This document shows, in pieces, positions 8,012-33,037 of a stretch of 64,000 bases of DNA (positions within the stretch are counted from its first letter, which is position 1; every line of letters begins with the position of its first letter). The translations under genes and the position numbers were made by a program. A model generated the notes under the pieces. The model was not told the DNA's origin. It did no database searches and worked only from the letters and a program-made list of their open reading frames with translations. The stretch lies in the sequence record MT764206.1; one strand, written 5' to 3'. The stretch is from Escherichia phage JEP6.

Positions 8012-8125
8012 TTAATTAATTAACCAAGCATTGATAAGTACTAAACTATACTGCGAATAAAATTCTGGACCAAAATGAAAAATCATATCATTTATAGTAT
8101 CCATAATGTAATTCAATTTAATCAT
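8012..8125 (-). CDS. possible small peptide (37 aa) downstream of nrdG
   Basis: internal ATG of track ORF 8012-8236; fills the 115-nt gap after nrdG; weak RBS. Confidence 0.25.
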   Translation of the reverse strand: MIKLNYIMDTINDMIFHFGPEFYSQYSLVLINAWLIN

Positions 8126-8588
8126 GTTTCCACACCCCATCGGTATTTGACCAAAGTCGCTGATTATCTGATCCTCGCCACAACTTTTTAGTCGGAAGAT
8201 TTTTCTCATACTTCCCATCAATAATAACATCAACATATTTAAGCATTTCTAGTTGTTTAATATCTTCAAACTTATATCCTGTCCACAACCAAATGCTTTT
8301 ATTGGGATAAAGATTTTTAATAGTTTGAACCACAGAGTGAATCACGTCTCTGTTATCAGGATAAAGAGGGTCACCTCCAGTTATAGTCAATCCTTCTATA
8401 TAATCATTATTCAAACATTCAATTAATTGCTCTAGTGTTTCACCAGTGAATGGAATACCATTTCTAGCATTCCATGTTGATTTATTATAACACCCTTCGC
8501 ATTTATGCAAACATCCAGTAACAAAAAGAACGGTCCTGCACCCAGGACCATTAACAAAATCGCAAGGATAAAATCTATCATAATTCAT
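8118..8588 (-). CDS. nrdG: anaerobic ribonucleotide reductase activating protein (radical SAM)
   Basis: 156 aa; radical-SAM cysteine cluster CLHKCEGC; overlaps nrdD stop. Confidence 0.9.
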   Translation of the reverse strand: MNYDRFYPCDFVNGPGCRTVLFVTGCLHKCEGCYNKSTWNARNGIPFTGETLEQLIECLNNDYIEGLTITGGDPLYPDNRDVIHSVVQTIKNLYPNKSIWLWTGYKFEDIKQLEMLKYVDVIIDGKYEKNLPTKKLWRGSDNQRLWSNTDGVWKHD

Positions 8589-9864
8589 TGGTGTTTAACC
8601 CTATGCATGATTTCTTTATTTTTACCGAGATTAAATCCGCGTTCGTTCGGATTTCCCAAATAACCACATGTTCTTCTTATTGTGTTCATCTTTTTAGGAT
8701 CAGTTTCTCCACAAATAGAACAAACAAATCCGTTTTCAGTAGGAGTCATTTCATGGGTGCTTCCGCATGTAAAACATTTATCTACTGGCATATTAACACC
8801 AAAATAATCTAAATGTTGTGCAGCATAATCCCATACGGCCTCAAGACCTTTTAAGTTATTTTTCATATCAGGAAGTTCAACATAAGAAATGTGACCACCT
8901 GTCGCAATGAAATGATATGGCGCTTCACGAGAAATCTTTTCAAACGGAGTAATATTTTCTTCTACTGAAACATGGAAACTATTAGTGTACCAACCTTTAT
9001 CGGTAACATCTTTTACGCTTCCATATTTTTCTGTATCAAGTTTACAGAAGCGATAACAAAGGTTTTCAGCAGGAGTCGAATATAAACTAAAAGCAAATCC
9101 GGTTCTTTCAGTCCACTGTTTAAGATGGGCATTCATTTTAGTTAAAATTTCCTGTCCAATATCACGACCGACAAGAATATTCAATTCATGAATACCAATG
9201 TATCCTAAAGACACTGAACTTCTACCGTTTTTAAATAACTCAATTATGTCGTCATCAGGTTTAAGACGAACCCCAAATGCACCTTCTTGGTAAAGAATAG
9301 GAGCAACAGTCGCTTTAACTCCTTTTAAGGAACTAATTCTACACATCAAAGCTTCAAAACACAAATCCATTCGTTCATTGAATAATTCAACAAATTTCTG
9401 TTCATTGAACTGTGTTCCAATATAAGAATCTAACGCGATGCGAGGAAGATTCAATGTTACAACACCAAGATTATTACGTCCATCAAGAATTTCATTGCCA
9501 GTCGAATCTTTCCATACGCTCAAGAAACTACGGCAACCCATTGGAGAAACAGGAACAGATGAACCAGTGATAGCTTTATTATTCTTAGCTGAAATAATAT
9601 CAGGATACATCCTTTTGCTTGCGCACTCTAGAGCAAGCTGCTTAATATCATAGTTCGGATCGTCTTTGTAAAGATTAACACCTTCTTCAACAAACATAAC
9701 AAGCTTAGGGAAAATAGGAGTTATCCCATCACGACCAAGACCTTTAATACGATTTTTCAGAATTGCTTTCTGAATCATTCGTTCAGTCCAGTCAGTTCCC
9801 GTACCAAATGTAATTGTTACAAAAGGCGTTTGTCCGTTTGAACTAAAGAGAGTATTTACTTCAT
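8585..9864 (-). CDS. nrdD: anaerobic ribonucleoside-triphosphate reductase NrdD, exon 2
   Basis: C-terminal glycyl-radical motif RRTCGYLG and zinc-ribbon CFTCGSTHEMTPTENGFVCSICG; frame continues from exon 1 across a 1045-nt intron giving ...DAFQAYE-Y-EVNTLF... and a 605-aa product. Confidence 0.85.
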
Positions 9865-10909
9865 CATTATATTCAGCATGAGTCGCAAATTCATGCCCGT
9901 TTATATGAAACAACAAAATTTGGATAGTCCATAGATATGCAACGTTCTTTTATAGTGCTAGGATGAAAATTTAGCGCTTTAGCTGCTTCTATATAAGACG
10001 TATACTTAATACCGTCAACAACCACATATTCAGGAACTTTATGAATAGTAGTCTTAATACTCAAAACAAGAGGATGAGTTTCGACTTCACTTTCAGTGCA
10101 ATTTAAATATTCCGCTGCTTTTTTAAAACTTCTAAAAGTTTTATTTTTAAGCTTTATCGATACTTGTTTTTTACTTTTTCGACTATTGATATTATTTTGC
10201 ACATGTTCCTTAGATCTTCCGTTTTTAGCATAATATTCAGCTACAGAAGATTTTATATTGTTTTTATGAGATTCGGATAACACTTTACCCTTATGAGCAT
10301 CTCTTAATTTTTGAATATGTTCTTCAGTATCCGGATGCTTATAAAACTTTTTACCGCCTATGGATTTATTTAAACATTTTTTGCTATAAAAATATTTACG
10401 TATGACCTCTTCTTCATGTTTTAATGCATCTTTATAACTATCAAATGTTTTTAAAATTATCCATTTAGTAGGTGTATCAGTTTTTAAGCGTTCATTTATA
10501 TACTTAGATGACGTTGTGTAAGTTTTCCAGTTTGTGGGCTTGTTTTTAATTGTTCTAAATTTTTTATAACCGATATAAATGTCGCCATTAGAAAACTTAA
10601 CTAAGTATGTAAATGCGTCTTTATCTTTTATTTTAGTACAACGTCTTTTTATCCATTTCATTGTTTCACCTCGTATTCATAAGATAATCTTATTTATACA
10701 AGATGACTGCTGCATGTCGCCATGCAGATTAGACTATATCTTCATCTTTCGATGCCGGCCGTTTCGAATAGCATTAGCTTCTATTCTACACCGCTACATT
10801 CATCACGGTTAGTCGTTAGGCATTTAGTTCAAAAGAACATTTAGCACGGGATTGTCTACTAGAGAGGTTCCCCGTTTAGACCGGTTTTACATGAGCCTGA
10901 ATTAAATTA
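9865..10909 (-). mobile_element. self-splicing group I intron in nrdD (sunY-type), carrying a homing endonuclease ORF 3' of the ribozyme core
   Basis: exon 1 ends in U that can pair (U-G) with internal guide GCUCAU just inside the intron (P1); intron ends in G; removal restores the NrdD frame; boundaries inferred to within a few nt. Confidence 0.75.
9891..10661 (-). CDS. GIY-YIG homing endonuclease (I-TevII-like), intron-encoded
   Basis: 256 aa; N-terminal GIY-YIG-type motif FTYLVKFSNGDIYIGY; lies entirely inside the nrdD intron. Confidence 0.8.
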   Translation of the reverse strand: MKWIKRRCTKIKDKDAFTYLVKFSNGDIYIGYKKFRTIKNKPTNWKTYTTSSKYINERLKTDTPTKWIILKTFDSYKDALKHEEEVIRKYFYSKKCLNKSIGGKKFYKHPDTEEHIQKLRDAHKGKVLSESHKNNIKSSVAEYYAKNGRSKEHVQNNINSRKSKKQVSIKLKNKTFRSFKKAAEYLNCTESEVETHPLVLSIKTTIHKVPEYVVVDGIKYTSYIEAAKALNFHPSTIKERCISMDYPNFVVSYKRA

Positions 10910-11447
10910 ACTCATACGCCTGAAACGCGTCGTATACGTCTTTTTCTGTTTTAGATTGGGCATAATTCAACGCATCAGCGATTTGCCATTTTTCTGCATC
11001 CTCAATATGTTTTGCATAGGTGCGTTTAACATATGGAGAAAGTACTTTATCTACATTCGCAAAAGTCGTTCCGCCATATTGATGAGAAGCAACCTGTGCA
11101 GTAATTTGTGCCATAATTGCAGTAGCAACGCCGATTGATTTAGGAGTTTCAATCTGCGCATTACCGAGCTTAAATCCGTTTTCAAGCATTCCTTTTAAAT
11201 CTACTAAACAGCAATTAGTAAATGGAAGAGCAGGGGAATAATCAATATCATGGAAATGGATAATTCCGCTTTCATGCGCTTTCATAATAAAAGACGGGAC
11301 CATATTTTTGGCAATGTGTTTAGACACAATACCAGCCATAAGGTCCCGTTGAGTTGGAAAAACACGAGAATCTTTATTAGCATTCTCGTTTAAAAGGTCT
11401 TTATTAGTTTTATGAATCAATCCTTCAATTTCTTTTTCAATTGTCAT
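10910..11447 (-). CDS. nrdD: anaerobic ribonucleoside-triphosphate reductase NrdD, exon 1
   Basis: N-terminal 179 codons plus 1 nt; track ORF 10902-11447 runs 2 codons into the intron before a stop. Confidence 0.85.
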
Positions 11448-28652: not shown

Positions 28653-29024
28653 TCAGGAAGCTGAATTGGATCGTTTATTCAACATTCTTTTTATTTCAGC
28701 ATCGGTCATATTATAACCAAGTTCCTTAACTCTTGCTCGCATAGTAGGCAAATAATTTTGGAACATTCCGTAGGCGTGATGCTTTGGTTTAGATTTTAAA
28801 TTAACTCCGCCAGAGCTTTCTTGCCATAAAATAGCAGCCATTATATGACCTAATCCGCTCTTGTGGATATTTTTGTGTGTTTTATATTTTCCATCCTTAG
28901 AAAATTGTTCCCCGAATTGATACGCGTAACGCATGTTATCGAGTTGGACATTACTGAAAGTATGCTCGGAGCTATGTGCCATCATTGAAATGGCCAATAG
29001 ACCAGCGAGTAGTGCTTTTCTCAT
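28653..29024 (-). CDS. SLT-like lytic transglycosylase domain protein with signal peptide, terminated by an in-frame TGA; frame stays open a further 56 codons to 28479
   Basis: 123 aa to the TGA; ES (ILWQESSGG) and GMFQ motifs before the stop, YNSG motif after it in the same frame; extended frame ends in coupling overlap with next gene. Confidence 0.55.
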   Translation of the reverse strand: MRKALLAGLLAISMMAHSSEHTFSNVQLDNMRYAYQFGEQFSKDGKYKTHKNIHKSGLGHIMAAILWQESSGGVNLKSKPKHHAYGMFQNYLPTMRARVKELGYNMTDAEIKRMLNKRSNSAS

Positions 29025-29031
29025 GCTTACC

Positions 29032-29493
29032 TCATTGAGTTTTAATTACTGCTTTAGAAGCCTTTCCTGGTAAACGACGACTGTTGATAATTGCCATCCT
29101 ACATTGAAGTGACGGGTCTTTGAACTTCGCGTTAGGTTTACAAACTGTAAATCCAAGCCAAAGATTTCCATCTGTGATTTCTAGACGTCCAGGACGATAT
29201 TCAACCCCATCAATAAAATCCTCGTCAATGTCAGGACGCGGAGGCATACTCAGGAATTCATTAACTTCTAAAACATGGTCTTTTATTTTATGGAATAATT
29301 CAAAAACATATGTCTCATCAATCTCCCGTTGAATTGCGCGATCAAGAAGATGTTGAGAATATTTTAGATGAAACGATGAGACCCCTGCTGCTTTTGATGC
29401 CTCACGAATCTCATTGTTAATTTGACGAAACTCCGACTCAAAGTGACGACGAAGCTTATTTCGACGGATAAAAACTTCTGTGTTGATAGTCAT
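29032..29493 (-). CDS. regB: endoribonuclease RegB
   Basis: 153 aa; sequence MTINTEVFIRRNKLRRHFESEF... matches recalled T4 RegB. Confidence 0.85.
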   Translation of the reverse strand: MTINTEVFIRRNKLRRHFESEFRQINNEIREASKAAGVSSFHLKYSQHLLDRAIQREIDETYVFELFHKIKDHVLEVNEFLSMPPRPDIDEDFIDGVEYRPGRLEITDGNLWLGFTVCKPNAKFKDPSLQCRMAIINSRRLPGKASKAVIKTQ

Positions 29494-29520
29494 GTTATTC
29501 TCCTCTTAACTGATAGAAAA

Positions 29521-29550
29521 ATTATACCACAGTCAAGAGGAAAAGTAAAC
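29521..29550 (-). promoter_or_regulatory. T4-type early promoter (GTTTAC-N18-TATAAT)
   Basis: conserved element about 28 nt upstream of regB start. Confidence 0.6.
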
Positions 29551-29552
29551 AA

Positions 29553-29831
29553 TTATTCTTTAAATCTAATCAATTTATTCATAGACTTTGAAACTTCTGC
29601 ACGAACCTCATGTAGATTTTTGAGCTGTTCAAGACGCTGCTCATAGTAAGCAATTTCATCTTCTTCGAGACAGTCCTGTGAATCTTCTTTAAGATAACGT
29701 GCATAGTCCTGGAAAGCGTTACGAACTACTTCCTGGAAGTCATCAAGACTTTGAATTTTCTTAGGAGCAACAGATACACGACGAGGGGCAGTATAATACT
29801 CATAACCAAACCCTGCGCTTAATTGAGCCAT
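29553..29831 (-). CDS. hypothetical protein (vs.3 position)
   Basis: 92 aa from ATG 29831 (TAATG overlap with upstream stop); track start 29873 is an extension. Confidence 0.45.
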
Positions 29832-30097
29832 TAGTATTTTTCCTCTGGTTGGAACACAGCACGGCAAGCCCACATACTGGCTTCTTTGAGTTTCGTTTTA
29901 GCAATAGTTAACTGATCGAGGCTTTCGGCGTAATTCTTCGCGAGTTCACAGTCTTCACAATTATCTAGTGCTTCCCAGAATTCATCGTATAAAGCATCAA
30001 AGATAAGTCCTAAACGAACTTCAGCGTCTTTGATAGCATTCACTTTACCGATTTTCTTTTCAGTATGCGGCTTATAACCCTTAATATCTTCAATCAT
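29831..30097 (-). CDS. hypothetical small protein (vs.4 position; Acb2 candidate by position only)
   Basis: 88 aa from ATG 30097 with GAGGAAG RBS; position relative to regB and the GrcA-like gene. Confidence 0.4.
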
Positions 30098-30311
30098 ATT
30101 TGACTTCCTCACCAGTACATAAATCATATTCAACTAAACGAATAGGTTCATGAATGCCATATCCTTGAACAGAAATTTCTGTAGTAGGATAAATTCCATC
30201 AATATCGCCCATATTCCACGCTTCATTAAATTGCTGTTCGCCTGAATTACTAAACCATTCGGCGAAAGCATTTAGCACATCTTCAGAACCTTCAATAATT
30301 ATCTTTGCCAT
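30090..30311 (-). CDS. hypothetical protein (vs.5 position)
   Basis: ORF track 73 aa. Confidence 0.45.
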   Translation of the reverse strand: MAKIIIEGSEDVLNAFAEWFSNSGEQQFNEAWNMGDIDGIYPTTEISVQGYGIHEPIRLVEYDLCTGEEVKYD

Positions 30312-30673
30312 TACAAACTCTCGGTAAAGGTACGAGCGATAACGTCGCGCTGCTGTTCCGGAGTCAGAGAGTTAAAGCGAACTGCATAACCGGATACACG
30401 GATGGTCAGCTGCGGATATTTTTCCGGATGCTTAACTGCATCTTCCAGAGTTTCACGACGCAGAACGTTAACGTTCAGGTGTTGACCACCTTCAATTTTA
30501 ACTGTAGGCTGTTGCTCAATTTCAATTTCACGGGCATGCAAACCGTAGAAAATTTCTGGGTCTACAAAAGAGTCCTCTTTAAAGGTTTTAGAAACGATAA
30601 TTCGTGCTTGAATACCATCTTCAAAATAAATAGTACCTTTATGTGTGCCTTCAAGAATTTGATATGCTTTCAT
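30311..30673 (-). CDS. autonomous glycyl radical cofactor (GrcA/YfiD-like)
   Basis: 120 aa; C-terminal ~60 aa ([59 protein letters not shown]) essentially identical to recalled E. coli GrcA, including glycyl-radical RVSGY. Confidence 0.8.
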
Positions 30674-30680
30674 ATAAACC

Positions 30681-31010
30681 TCAATTAGAAAATAAATTTA
30701 TCCAAGATTGTTCTTTAATTAAAAATGGCTCAGAATCATATGCCATTAAACTCTGTGTGATTAGTCCTTTAAAAGGCCCATCAATAAATTCCATGGTAAA
30801 ATATGGAATTTTATTCATTAGCCGTGCATTAGGAGCAGTACACAAAACTCTGCATCCTTTGAATACACCTTTTTGTAATTTGTATTGCTTAGGATAAAAT
30901 TCACTTAAAATGTTATTTTTTGCCAAAATTTCAAAATGATTCACCAATTTATTTTTAATAGTTTTTGGCGAAAAATAAAGATATTCGAAAAGCTGAGTGT
31001 CTGTCATCAT
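30681..31010 (-). CDS. hypothetical protein
   Basis: 109 aa from ATG 31010 (ATGA overlap with upstream stop); track start 31061 is an extension. Confidence 0.45.
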
Positions 31011-31546
31011 TGCATTCCGATTACGAAAAACTGCGGACGAGTAATACCACCAATACAACATTTAATATTACAGCAGCAGTGTACAGTGTCAATGTGGACA
31101 CTATAAATCTTATCCATATCAGGAGATTTGACAGGCTCATCAATTATATATAAAATTCGCGAAAGCGATAAACCTCTGAACTTGCTTCCTTTATTACCAA
31201 TAAAACTGCGCACAGAATCAGTAAATAAACGAAAACGTATATCATCATTAGAATAACGCGAAAATTCCTTTTTAATGTTATTTGCAGAAATTTTAGCGTA
31301 AGCTGAAGTATTAGAAAGAACAATAACCGTTCCGCCATCATATAACCAATTAGCAGCAAAGTTAGTCACAGCAATTGATTTACCTGATTGACGTCCACCA
31401 TCTAGTCGAAGTGTGCAATACTGTTTAAGTAAGTCTTCAAATGGTGGGACATAACCGTTCTTACAAATTTCTTCTACTCTAGCATCAGAATGGTGTGTAA
31501 AAGCATTCATCAGGGATAGATAAGGTCCAGTTAAAAATGTTCTCAT
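31007..31546 (-). CDS. small P-loop NTPase with Cys-rich C-terminus
   Basis: 179 aa; Walker A GGRQSGKS, Walker B LYIIDEP; occupies the position where T4 has denV. Confidence 0.5.
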   Translation of the reverse strand: MRTFLTGPYLSLMNAFTHHSDARVEEICKNGYVPPFEDLLKQYCTLRLDGGRQSGKSIAVTNFAANWLYDGGTVIVLSNTSAYAKISANNIKKEFSRYSNDDIRFRLFTDSVRSFIGNKGSKFRGLSLSRILYIIDEPVKSPDMDKIYSVHIDTVHCCCNIKCCIGGITRPQFFVIGMQ

Positions 31547-31627
31547 TTAGTTTCTCTTTTAGGTTGGGCCATTCCGTGGCGCATGAATTGTCCATTTCTG
31601 TATTTACCCCTCCAAGTAATTATGAAT

Positions 31628-31657
31628 ATACTATCACAATTCTAGGAGAAAGTAAAC
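31628..31657 (-). promoter_or_regulatory. T4-type early promoter (GTTTAC-N18-TAGTAT)
   Basis: conserved element between ipII stop and ORF start 31546. Confidence 0.55.
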
Positions 31658-31659
31658 TG

Positions 31660-31962
31660 TTATTTACCTTTAATTACTTTAGCTGCTTCGATAGCCGCTT
31701 GCTGAAGGTCATCCATAGACATACCGAATTTAGAAGCAAAGTTATCAATTTTCTTTTCGACAGCATTCAAAGGCTTGGCCTGTTTACCTTCATTAGCGCC
31801 AGGAAGAGCGAGAATACGCTCTTTGTCAATATAAAGGCTTACAAGTTTCTTACGGTCTTTATCGGACAAATCATGAAATGAATGGGCCTTTTTATTTATA
31901 GCGGCTTCTAATTTACCTGCACTCACTCGCGCTTCAGTAATAAATTCTTGATATGTTTTCAT
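31660..31962 (-). CDS. ipII: internal protein II
   Basis: 100 aa; N-terminal capsid-targeting sequence MKTYQEFITEA; matches recalled T4 IPII. Confidence 0.85.
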   Translation of the reverse strand: MKTYQEFITEARVSAGKLEAAINKKAHSFHDLSDKDRKKLVSLYIDKERILALPGANEGKQAKPLNAVEKKIDNFASKFGMSMDDLQQAAIEAAKVIKGK

Positions 31963-32021
31963 ATGTTTCCTTTAAATGTAAATATTTTAATTGGTAATTG
32001 ACTGTTTAAGTAACTGTGAAT

Positions 32022-32051
32022 ATATTATCACAATTCTAAGAGAAAGTAAAC
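32022..32051 (-). promoter_or_regulatory. T4-type early promoter (GTTTAC-N18-TAATAT)
   Basis: conserved element between e stop and ipII start. Confidence 0.55.
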
Positions 32052-32056
32052 TGCTT

Positions 32057-32581
<525 letters not shown>

Positions 32582-33037
32582 TTAAAAGAGGTTGTTCATT
32601 ATTCGGTAAAGTGAAGGACCCATCACATATTGCCACTGAGTACGAGGAATAAGAGCAAAAGCGTCCATCTCTGGAATCATAACACCATCTTTATTTTCAA
32701 AATAAGACTCGCAATGGCAATTTCTAAACATCTCATGCTCTACTGGAATCGTATAATAAAATAGCTGTAAGTCTTTATTACTAGAATATTTAAATACACC
32801 TAGGTCTTCTAGAAGGTCTGGATTATAATTGCTAAAACCGGTCTCTTCTAAGCATTCTCTTTTTGCAGCTTCCAGTGCATTCAAATCAGAACTTTCTACA
32901 CGGCCCTTTGGAATATCCCAGCGGTGTGCCATCATTCCAGGCTTACGAGAACCAGTAACCCGACCCATAAATAAATCTTTATCTTCTGTCATAAAGATAA
33001 TACCAGCTGATAAGGTTTTCATTTTAATTTCCTGCAT
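32582..33037 (-). CDS. nudE: Nudix hydrolase
   Basis: 151 aa; Nudix box GRVESSDLNALEAAKRECLEETGF; alternative start at second ATG 33022 (AGGAAA RBS). Confidence 0.8.
   Translation of the reverse strand: MQEIKMKTLSAGIIFMTEDKDLFMGRVTGSRKPGMMAHRWDIPKGRVESSDLNALEAAKRECLEETGFSNYNPDLLEDLGVFKYSSNKDLQLFYYTIPVEHEMFRNCHCESYFENKDGVMIPEMDAFALIPRTQWQYVMGPSLYRIMNNLF

Follow-up and report, generated by a model that had tools for sequence, protein, structure and literature searches.

How does a virulent phage come to carry a long stretch of a host gene, without a single difference, inside a gene that otherwise resembles those of other phages? The question is raised by a minus-strand open reading frame (ORF) of 120 amino acids at positions 30311–30673 of a 64,000-nucleotide stretch of Escherichia phage JEP6 (MT764206.1; this whole stretch is called the window below). 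An earlier note on this DNA, made from the letters and an ORF list, had described the product as a GrcA/YfiD-like glycyl-radical cofactor in which a host-derived C-terminus, a spare part for oxygen-damaged pyruvate formate-lyase (PFL), follows an unrelated N-terminus. The ORF lies where the note had put it in the ORF list. Its sequence and position identify it as the Tequatrovirus gene vs.6, the orthologue of the gene for T4 Y06I (UniProt P13316). Very probably Vs.6 is a PFL spare part, encoded by an old phage homologue of grcA whose 3′ half has been overwritten by recombination with the host gene. The parts of vs.6 to which the evidence refers are as follows.

30311–30673, minus strand: vs.6 coding sequence, 120 amino acids plus TAA (ORF list, identity to HY03 and T4, synteny with RB32, Pfam, PHROG 1209)
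30496–30673, minus strand: phage-type 5′ part, codons 1–60 (nucleotide identities, hhalign of the N-terminal half)
30324–30495, minus strand: host-identical patch, I60 (partly) to T117, most of the structured glycyl-radical domain (exact run against grcA nucleotides 200–371)
30389–30391, minus strand: GGT codon of Gly95, the predicted radical glycine in RVSGYAVRF, equivalent to GrcA G102 and PflB G734 (alignment to 6owr_A and PFL 697–759)
30311–30323, minus strand: last four sense codons and stop, ACC GAG AGT TTG TAA, containing the 3′ edge of the converted tract (four synonymous differences from E. coli ACT GAA AGC CTG)

A host-identical patch in the 3′ half of vs.6

The window sequence from 30324 to 30495 is identical over 172 nucleotides (nt) to nt 200–371 of E. 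coli grcA (blastn E = 4e-83, far beyond chance), and this exact run is followed by four synonymous differences in the last four codons. A grcA match was found in 5426 of 5426 E. coli genomes, the best at 97.8% over 185 nt, and none reached the 5′ half of vs.6. For comparisons between genomes we used a 159-nt internal patch (gene nt 184–342). Here the window and the host agree at 159 of 159 positions, compared with 105 of 182 aligned positions in the N-terminal part (Fisher P = 1e-25). G+C content (GC) rises from 0.25–0.33 just upstream of the boundary to 0.49–0.50 in the patch. At third codon positions (GC3) it is 0.21 in the N-terminal half of vs.6 and 0.45 in the C-terminal half, and 0.41–0.44 in the halves of E. 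coli grcA. Within the internal patch the window differs from E. coli at 0 positions, from Citrobacter at 13 and from Klebsiella pneumoniae at 20, and at the two sites in the 3′ half where E. coli and the cryptic Escherichia sp. MOD1-EC7003 differ, the phage has the E. coli type. A nucleotide comparison with host grcA had been suggested as a way of dating the transfer; the lack of any difference over 172 nt, together with a host-like GC3 of 0.45 against 0.21, supports a recent host origin of the C-terminal half of vs.6.

When E. coli grcA was used as the query, 638 phage records matched at 95% identity or more over host nt 200–384. The window, T4 and E. coli show 0 differences from one another in the internal patch; T4 departs from E. 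coli in the last two codons only, and the window in the last four only. Mosigvirus has 2–4 private synonymous changes in the internal patch and a phage-type 3′ end, and the patch lies within 0–4 differences of E. coli in both Tequatrovirus and Mosigvirus. Since the N-terminal halves of the window and Mosigvirus are separated by a synonymous divergence (dS) of 0.42–0.57, yet both carry a nearly unaltered E. coli patch, the patch is younger than the split between the two genera, or has moved between them.

An old phage gene with a diverged N-terminal half

The N-terminal half of Vs.6, which the earlier note had taken to be unrelated to GrcA, proved to be a diverged homologue of the GrcA N-terminal region. 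BLASTP of Vs.6 against GrcA aligns from residue 22, and profiles of the N-terminal halves, built from 11 phage and 66 distinct bacterial GrcA sequences using only the parts upstream of GGQHLN, were aligned by hhalign with a probability of 95.9% (E = 5e-9; 58 columns, 28% identity). The phage and bacterial proteins have in common an xIQI start and an ARxIVxK..F.ED block. At the nucleotide level the N-terminal part is about 50–51% identical to host grcA, 74–75% to Jiaodavirus and 88–97% to Tequatrovirus and Mosigvirus.

Homologues of Vs.6 were found by tblastn in 1591 phage records. Full-length homologues are present in T4-like phages of Klebsiella, Enterobacter and Citrobacter (75–83% amino acid identity), and also in Krischvirus, Aeromonas phages, T5-like phages (about 52%) and a jumbo Yersinia phage; in a published comparison vs.6 matched Gly_radical in six of six T4-like genomes (PMC1524935). 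Because full-length homologues without the host-identical patch exist, in Slopekvirus, Pseudotevenvirus, Karamvirus, Krischvirus, T5-like and Aeromonas phages, vs.6 predates the patch. Since homologues are widespread and the N-terminal half is homologous to that of GrcA, vs.6 is an old phage homologue of grcA in which the recent part is the 3′ half only. The idea of a host-derived acquisition thus stands for the C-terminal half, but as a conversion patch within an existing homologue and not as a first acquisition or a fusion.

Purifying selection on the radical domain

The 59 C-terminal residues of E. coli GrcA are encoded unchanged in Slopekvirus and in Enterobacter phage EC-F1 (Pseudotevenvirus). 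The C-terminal halves of these phage genes nevertheless differ from E. coli at 31 synonymous and 0 non-synonymous positions (dS about 2; non-synonymous divergence, dN, 0). In these alignments, such counts show a radical domain under very strong purifying selection, with synonymous sites free to change. As these phages share the protein half with the host despite saturated synonymous divergence, a recent transfer cannot be concluded from 100% identity to a host protein alone.

A second host-matched case in Klebsiella phages

In Klebsiella Jiaodavirus the N-terminal half of vs.6 is 74–75% identical to that of the window, and the C-terminal half is GC-rich (GC3 0.55–0.60) and encodes the variant ETLLDAVEH. 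A metagenome scan with a 50-mer from the Jiaodavirus patch returned 26 DNA stretches. One was a 165,693-bp phage contig (L104) and the 24 other readable ones were bacterial; the remaining one was cut at a contig end and unreadable. The bacterial stretches came from contigs of up to 620 kb, two of which were inspected and had the order ung - grcA - srmB - nadB - rpoE - rseABC - lepA, and the bacterial protein is exactly GRCA_KLEP7, that is, K. pneumoniae GrcA. Exact runs against K. pneumoniae grcA extend over 158 nt in L104 and 107 nt in phage vB_VIPKPNUMC01. In the 159-nt internal patch, L104 differs from K. pneumoniae at 1 position and from the window at 19, and E. coli and K. pneumoniae differ from each other at 20.

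The N-terminal parts group the phages together (74–97% identity, with about 50% to any host); the tree of the patch follows the hosts. K. pneumoniae grcA as query matched 106 phage records at 95–99% over host nt 202–369/374, and neither this search nor that with E. coli grcA found a phage covering at least 80% of the host gene. The 5′ edge of the patch is the same in the E. coli/phage and K. pneumoniae/phage pairs. As far as alignments can tell, these results show that the 3′ half of the Jiaodavirus gene has been overwritten by K. pneumoniae grcA, independently of the E. coli case. The grcA genes of 11 other enterobacteria (Salmonella, Enterobacter, Citrobacter, Yersinia, Serratia, Pectobacterium, Erwinia, Edwardsiella, Raoultella, Kluyvera and Cedecea), queried as one joined sequence, matched no phage record at 95% or more; 43 phage records were returned at 90–95%, in a ranking that favoured joined pieces.

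Some records obtained in these comparisons are irregular. In Klebsiella phage KPV15 (321–683) vs.6 is annotated as a 51-residue C-terminal fragment and the N-terminal half is out of frame, the copy being either a pseudogene or wrongly sequenced; its patch, of the K. pneumoniae type, is intact, with 2 differences. A typical enterobacterial grcA is present under the record title 'Vagococcus sp. WN89Y', where the assembly is probably mislabelled or contaminated, and on a 275-kb 'plasmid' of Klebsiella sp. WOUb02, which is probably a chromid or a misassigned replicon.

Probable recurrent conversion and its direction

The Jiaodaviruses KP179, PKO111, L104 and L097 encode identical Vs.6 proteins, and their N-terminal halves are 2–8 nt apart. 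Their patches are 11–20 synonymous positions apart and fall into three 159-nt haplotypes; KP179 and L104, for example, differ at 2 of 183 positions in the N-terminal half versus 11 of 159 in the patch (P = 0.008). Variation is also seen at the 3′ end of the gene, where the last four codons read as follows.

T4: ACT GAA AGT TTG
Window: ACC GAG AGT TTG
OES_C-2: ACT GAG AGC CTG
Mosigvirus: ACT GAG AGT CTA
Slopekvirus: ACA GAG AGT CTA
E. coli grcA: ACT GAA AGC CTG

This patchwork is as would be expected if tracts ended at different places. The window, with ACC GAG where T4 has ACT GAA, has two extra synonymous differences from E. coli. In Escherichia phage OES_C-2 the 3′ end is closer to the host than in any other copy seen (1 difference from E. 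coli grcA in 185 nt), and vs.6 has a 6-nt in-frame deletion in the linker (118 amino acids). In megablast searches, the C-terminal half is at least 95% identical to the window in 642 of 644 Tequatrovirus- or Mosigvirus-type records, whereas the N-terminal half falls below 95% in 99 records, so that the C-terminal half is the more uniform of the two. We consider it likely that vs.6 is a hotspot of repeated conversion, at which the radical half tracks the grcA allele of the current host and the phage N-terminal half is kept; within each genus, this pattern would take in several haplotypes of the patch and several ends of the tract.

Mechanistically, the 3′ half of vs.6, from host nt 200 or so to the last few codons, has been overwritten by homologous recombination with grcA, for which fragmented host DNA amid the T4 recombination proteins is a plausible substrate. 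The host DNA template is removed by T4 EndoII and EndoIV (PMC2988021). The tracts may end where conservation is highest, at EGGQHLNVN and ahead of the stop codon; beyond these blocks, similarity would be too low for recombination.

Transfer from phage to host was considered and rejected. E. coli grcA is compositionally uniform (GC3 0.41 and 0.44 in its halves, with similar dS to Citrobacter and Salmonella), whereas vs.6 is compositionally split, which gives the direction as host to phage. Contamination of assemblies with host reads is unlikely and was also set aside, since the patch is present in 638 independent records including T4; moreover, the E. coli allele is found even in Tequatroviruses that have Serratia, Citrobacter or Salmonella as recorded host or are named as Yersinia phages.

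Two other histories have to be set against conversion of an existing gene. A new chimeric gene, made by fusing a host glycyl-radical module (the C-terminal 60 or so residues) to an unrelated phage N-terminus, would account for the sharp break in identity at host nt 200 and for the jump in GC from 0.34 to 0.49, but it is very improbable given that the N-terminal halves are homologous, by both the hhalign and the BLASTP alignments, and that full-length homologues free of the patch in other phages place the gene before the patch. Harder still to credit is a single ancient acquisition, with no recent transfer and with synonymous sites frozen by codon or mRNA-structure constraints. Purifying selection on the amino acids of the C-terminal half is very strong in all lineages, with dN = 0 in several, as such a history would have it; yet the same protein is encoded with 31 synonymous differences in Slopekvirus and EC-F1, the Tequatrovirus and Mosigvirus patches stay so close to E. 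coli beside N-terminal halves with a dS of 0.42–0.57, and Klebsiella phages carry the K. pneumoniae allele instead. Overwriting of the 3′ half of an old phage gene by host grcA is the account that we retain.

Intragenic exchange between phage and host in photosystem genes has reportedly been described for cyanophage psbA, as mosaicism, by Zeidner et al. in 2005 and Sullivan et al. in 2006. That case resembles vs.6 in that a metabolic gene of virulent phages carries patches of host-like sequence and composition through repeated homologous exchange; the host, the pathway and the phage group are different. The vs.6 patch differs also in having the same 5′ edge in two host–phage pairs and in being an exact copy of the current host's allele.

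Family membership of Vs.6

Vs.6 has the make-up of the GrcA/YfiD family (TIGR04365, IPR011140): a small stand-alone protein of 120 residues with a glycyl-radical domain and no enzyme barrel. Its sole Pfam domain is Gly_radical (residues 60–101, E = 2.5e-18), and the radical glycine, G95, is conserved in the RVSGYAV motif and aligns to GrcA G102. Residues 61–120 are identical to residues 68–127 of E. coli GrcA at 60 of 60 positions, including the radical glycine, in both BLASTP and phmmer alignments, so that the near-identity proposed in the earlier note was borne out. Phmmer against PDB matched GrcA (6owr_A, E = 9e-42) and PFL 697–759 (E = 5e-26, Vs.6 residues 58–120). The C-terminal domain is thus homologous to PFL residues 693–759 or so, and the N-terminal region of about 60 residues is homologous to its counterpart in GrcA. 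Among NCBIfam models the GrcA equivalog TIGR04365 scores best (E = 1e-45), and phage genes of this kind are named 'autonomous glycyl radical cofactor GrcA' in RefSeq records.

In the alignment with T4 Y06I, 119 of 120 residues are identical; the single change, in the linker, is Q54 in the window for P54 in T4. The two genes are alike in their position between vs.7 and vs.5, their length of 120 codons and their host-identical 3′ half. E. coli GrcA (YfiD, 6OWR) has the same C-terminal 60 residues and is likewise a stand-alone protein with a flexible N-terminal half and a structured radical domain. In contrast to it, Vs.6 has an N-terminal part that is only about 28% identical at the profile level and 7 residues shorter, and its gene belongs to a virulent phage and is expressed early during infection. 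The C-terminal domain of PflB (PDB 1H16/2PFL, about 693–759) is the one that Vs.6 replaces; unlike PflB, Vs.6 is a separate polypeptide without the 10-stranded barrel and the catalytic cysteines, the cofactor-bearing fragment only.

Proposed function

Y06I and YfiD have been reported in vitro to be radicalised by the PFL activase (PFL-AE) and to restore PFL that has been cleaved by O2 at G734; no other spare parts have been validated (PMC8683613). That paper credits Wagner et al. 2001 (pmid 11444864) with the reconstitution of PFL by Y06I. YfiD residues 61–127 adopt the fold of PFL 693–759, and residues 1–60 are disordered and are needed for tight binding of cleaved PFL and for efficient radical installation (PMC8683613). 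In T4, vs.6 gives an early RNA and its protein was detected in the 'middle' class (PMC9697503 supplement). The role in repairing oxygen-damaged PFL that had been proposed for the window protein therefore stands at one remove, as a role reported for the T4 orthologue, from which the window protein is one residue apart.

In an infected cell, the host radical-SAM activase PflA (PFL-AE) would put a radical on G95, and the C-terminal domain of Vs.6 would form a complex with PFL cleaved at G734, which could then convert pyruvate to acetyl-CoA and formate again. The flexible N-terminal 60 or so residues may help in binding cleaved PFL and in radical installation, as shown for YfiD. Vs.6 combines the host catalytic half, unchanged, with a phage-specific version of the binding half. 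As T4 infection puts an end to host transcription and breaks down the host DNA, there would be no resupply of GrcA or PflB from the host, and an early phage copy may keep PFL running in the micro-oxic conditions of the gut. The acetyl-CoA produced would yield ATP, and the formate could serve as reductant for the phage class III ribonucleotide reductase, NrdD/NrdG. Enzymes of this class use formate as their hydrogen donor, as reported by Mulliez et al. 1995.

A spare part for phage NrdD, or one activated by NrdG, instead of for host PFL might be suspected from the NrdD with a Gly_radical domain in the same genomes, from NrdG being a radical-SAM activase, and from published speculation on spare parts for other glycyl radical enzymes (PMC8683613). 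We think this quite unlikely. Vs.6 has no significant similarity to the NrdD of the window (best BLASTP E = 2.7), in contrast to its match with the PFL C-terminus at E = 5e-26 and the identity of its C-terminal half to host GrcA; conversion by grcA keeps Vs.6 matched to the host PFL system, and reconstitution of PFL by Y06I has been reported. A decoy or modulator, which would soak up PFL-AE, S-adenosylmethionine or flavodoxin, or block PFL, and so redirect host anaerobic metabolism, deserves even less credence. A diverged N-terminal half could alter partner binding, but nothing direct speaks for a decoy, and the restoration of PFL activity reported for Y06I speaks against it. Moreover, conservation of the radical glycine context at dN = 0 is not something that an inhibitor would require, and an exact copy of the catalytic domain fits replacement.

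Several results weigh against the interpretation of Vs.6 as a PFL spare part matched to its host by repeated conversion. The score of Vs.6 against TIGR04365, 154.9 bits, does not reach the curated NCBI equivalog cut-off of 170 bits, because the N-terminal half is diverged; E. coli GrcA scores 233.9. A promoter and terminator scan of positions 29000–32600 gave 12 promoter-like sites where 12.4 were expected, and no transcription start could be assigned in that interval. An omics study saw no sign that vs.6 expression depends on anaerobiosis (PMC9697503), no function in vivo is described for the vs.6 of any phage in the literature searched, and the use of PFL products for ATP and for NrdD/NrdG is something that we infer. 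For the KP179 and PKO111 haplotypes no donor was found, the nearest alleles being those of the K. pneumoniae complex, with 10–15 differences in 159 nt; these patches reflect either older events or unsampled donors. Finally, conversion could be neutral to selection and simply follow from high similarity, since the phage protein before conversion was probably already nearly identical in its C-terminal half.

Relation to nrdD and nrdG

The earlier note had placed vs.6 in the same early region as the anaerobic genes nrdD and nrdG, which are found in the window as follows.

8118–8588, minus strand: nrdG (Fer4_12 and Radical_SAM)
10902–11447 and 8585–9916, minus strand: nrdD exon ORFs (Pfam NRDD, E = 1e-122 and 1e-40; Gly_radical, E = 1e-25)
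9891–10661, minus strand: homing-endonuclease-like ORF of 256 amino acids between the nrdD exons (weak GIY-YIG (SegE-type) and NUMOD1, E about 1e-5)

The split in nrdD is probably due to an intron with a homing endonuclease. Both genes are on the same strand as vs.6, but they are not adjacent to it: they lie 19–22 kb and dozens of genes downstream, outside the vs.6 unit. Among the matches listed, NrdD is present in every phage group that carries GrcA (Tequatrovirus, Mosigvirus, Jiaodavirus, Krischvirus, T5-like phages, Aeromonas phages and a jumbo coliphage of about 350 kb). Any link between vs.6 and nrdD would be functional, not positional.

Genomic context of vs.6

The window belongs to Tequatrovirus, and over 363 nt its vs.6 is 99.7% identical to that of Escherichia phage HY03 and 98.1% identical to that of T4. 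The gene order is vs.8 - vs.7 - vs.6 - vs.5 - vs.4 - vs.3 - regB, downstream of the lysozyme gene e. The order from vs.8 to vs.3 and regB is common to the window and RB32, and the position of vs.6 between vs.7 and vs.5 is kept in RB32, HY03, T4, Mosigvirus and Jiaodavirus. PHROG 1209, the T4-type vs.6 group, matches Vs.6 over its full length (residues 1–120, E = 6e-63); this match, the position between vs.7 and vs.5 and the overlap with vs.5 place Vs.6 in that group. The TAA of vs.6 and the ATG of vs.5 overlap by one A (TAATG), which suggests translational coupling. A further short feature lies upstream of the gene.

30679–30682, minus strand: GAGG, a Shine–Dalgarno-like motif 5 nt before the vs.6 ATG, within the 7-nt gap after vs.7 (read from the sequence)

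The one-base overlap of the vs.6 stop and vs.5 start is present in the annotated coordinates of every T4-like genus fetched. The neighbours vs.5 (30090–30311, minus strand) and vs.7 (30681–31061, minus strand) have no Pfam match and belong to PHROGs of unknown function. An antisense ORF of 127 amino acids (30305–30688, plus strand) spans all of vs.6 and is a mechanical ORF without support. The 165-kb genome of 'Pseudomonas phage PsgM02F' (OR584013.1) carries a vs.6 that is 98.1% identical to that of the window over 363 nt, and its host label looks doubtful.

Implications

As a gene, vs.6 is textbook-level for T4 specialists, and finding it here adds nothing new. Both the gene and its biochemistry are already known, and the repeated, host-matched conversion is the only point that is possibly new. 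We found no paper on such conversion; it may have been noticed before, as the main T4 genome review and the 2001 paper lay outside the search.

What the locus offers is a clean and datable case of recombination between a strictly virulent phage and a chromosomal gene of its host; at least two host-matched events were independent of each other, and their 5′ tract edges coincide. Such patches might be used to measure natural recombination between phage and host, or to tell from a phage genome which host was used recently. They also raise the question of whether differences between GrcA alleles (E/L and K/E in ETLEDAVKH) matter for the fit to the host PFL and its activase. If vs.6 is a hotspot of conversion and the conversion is selected, it would keep the spare part exactly fitted to the host enzyme; if the conversion is neutral, vs.6 would be a natural recorder of host use and of rates of phage–host recombination.

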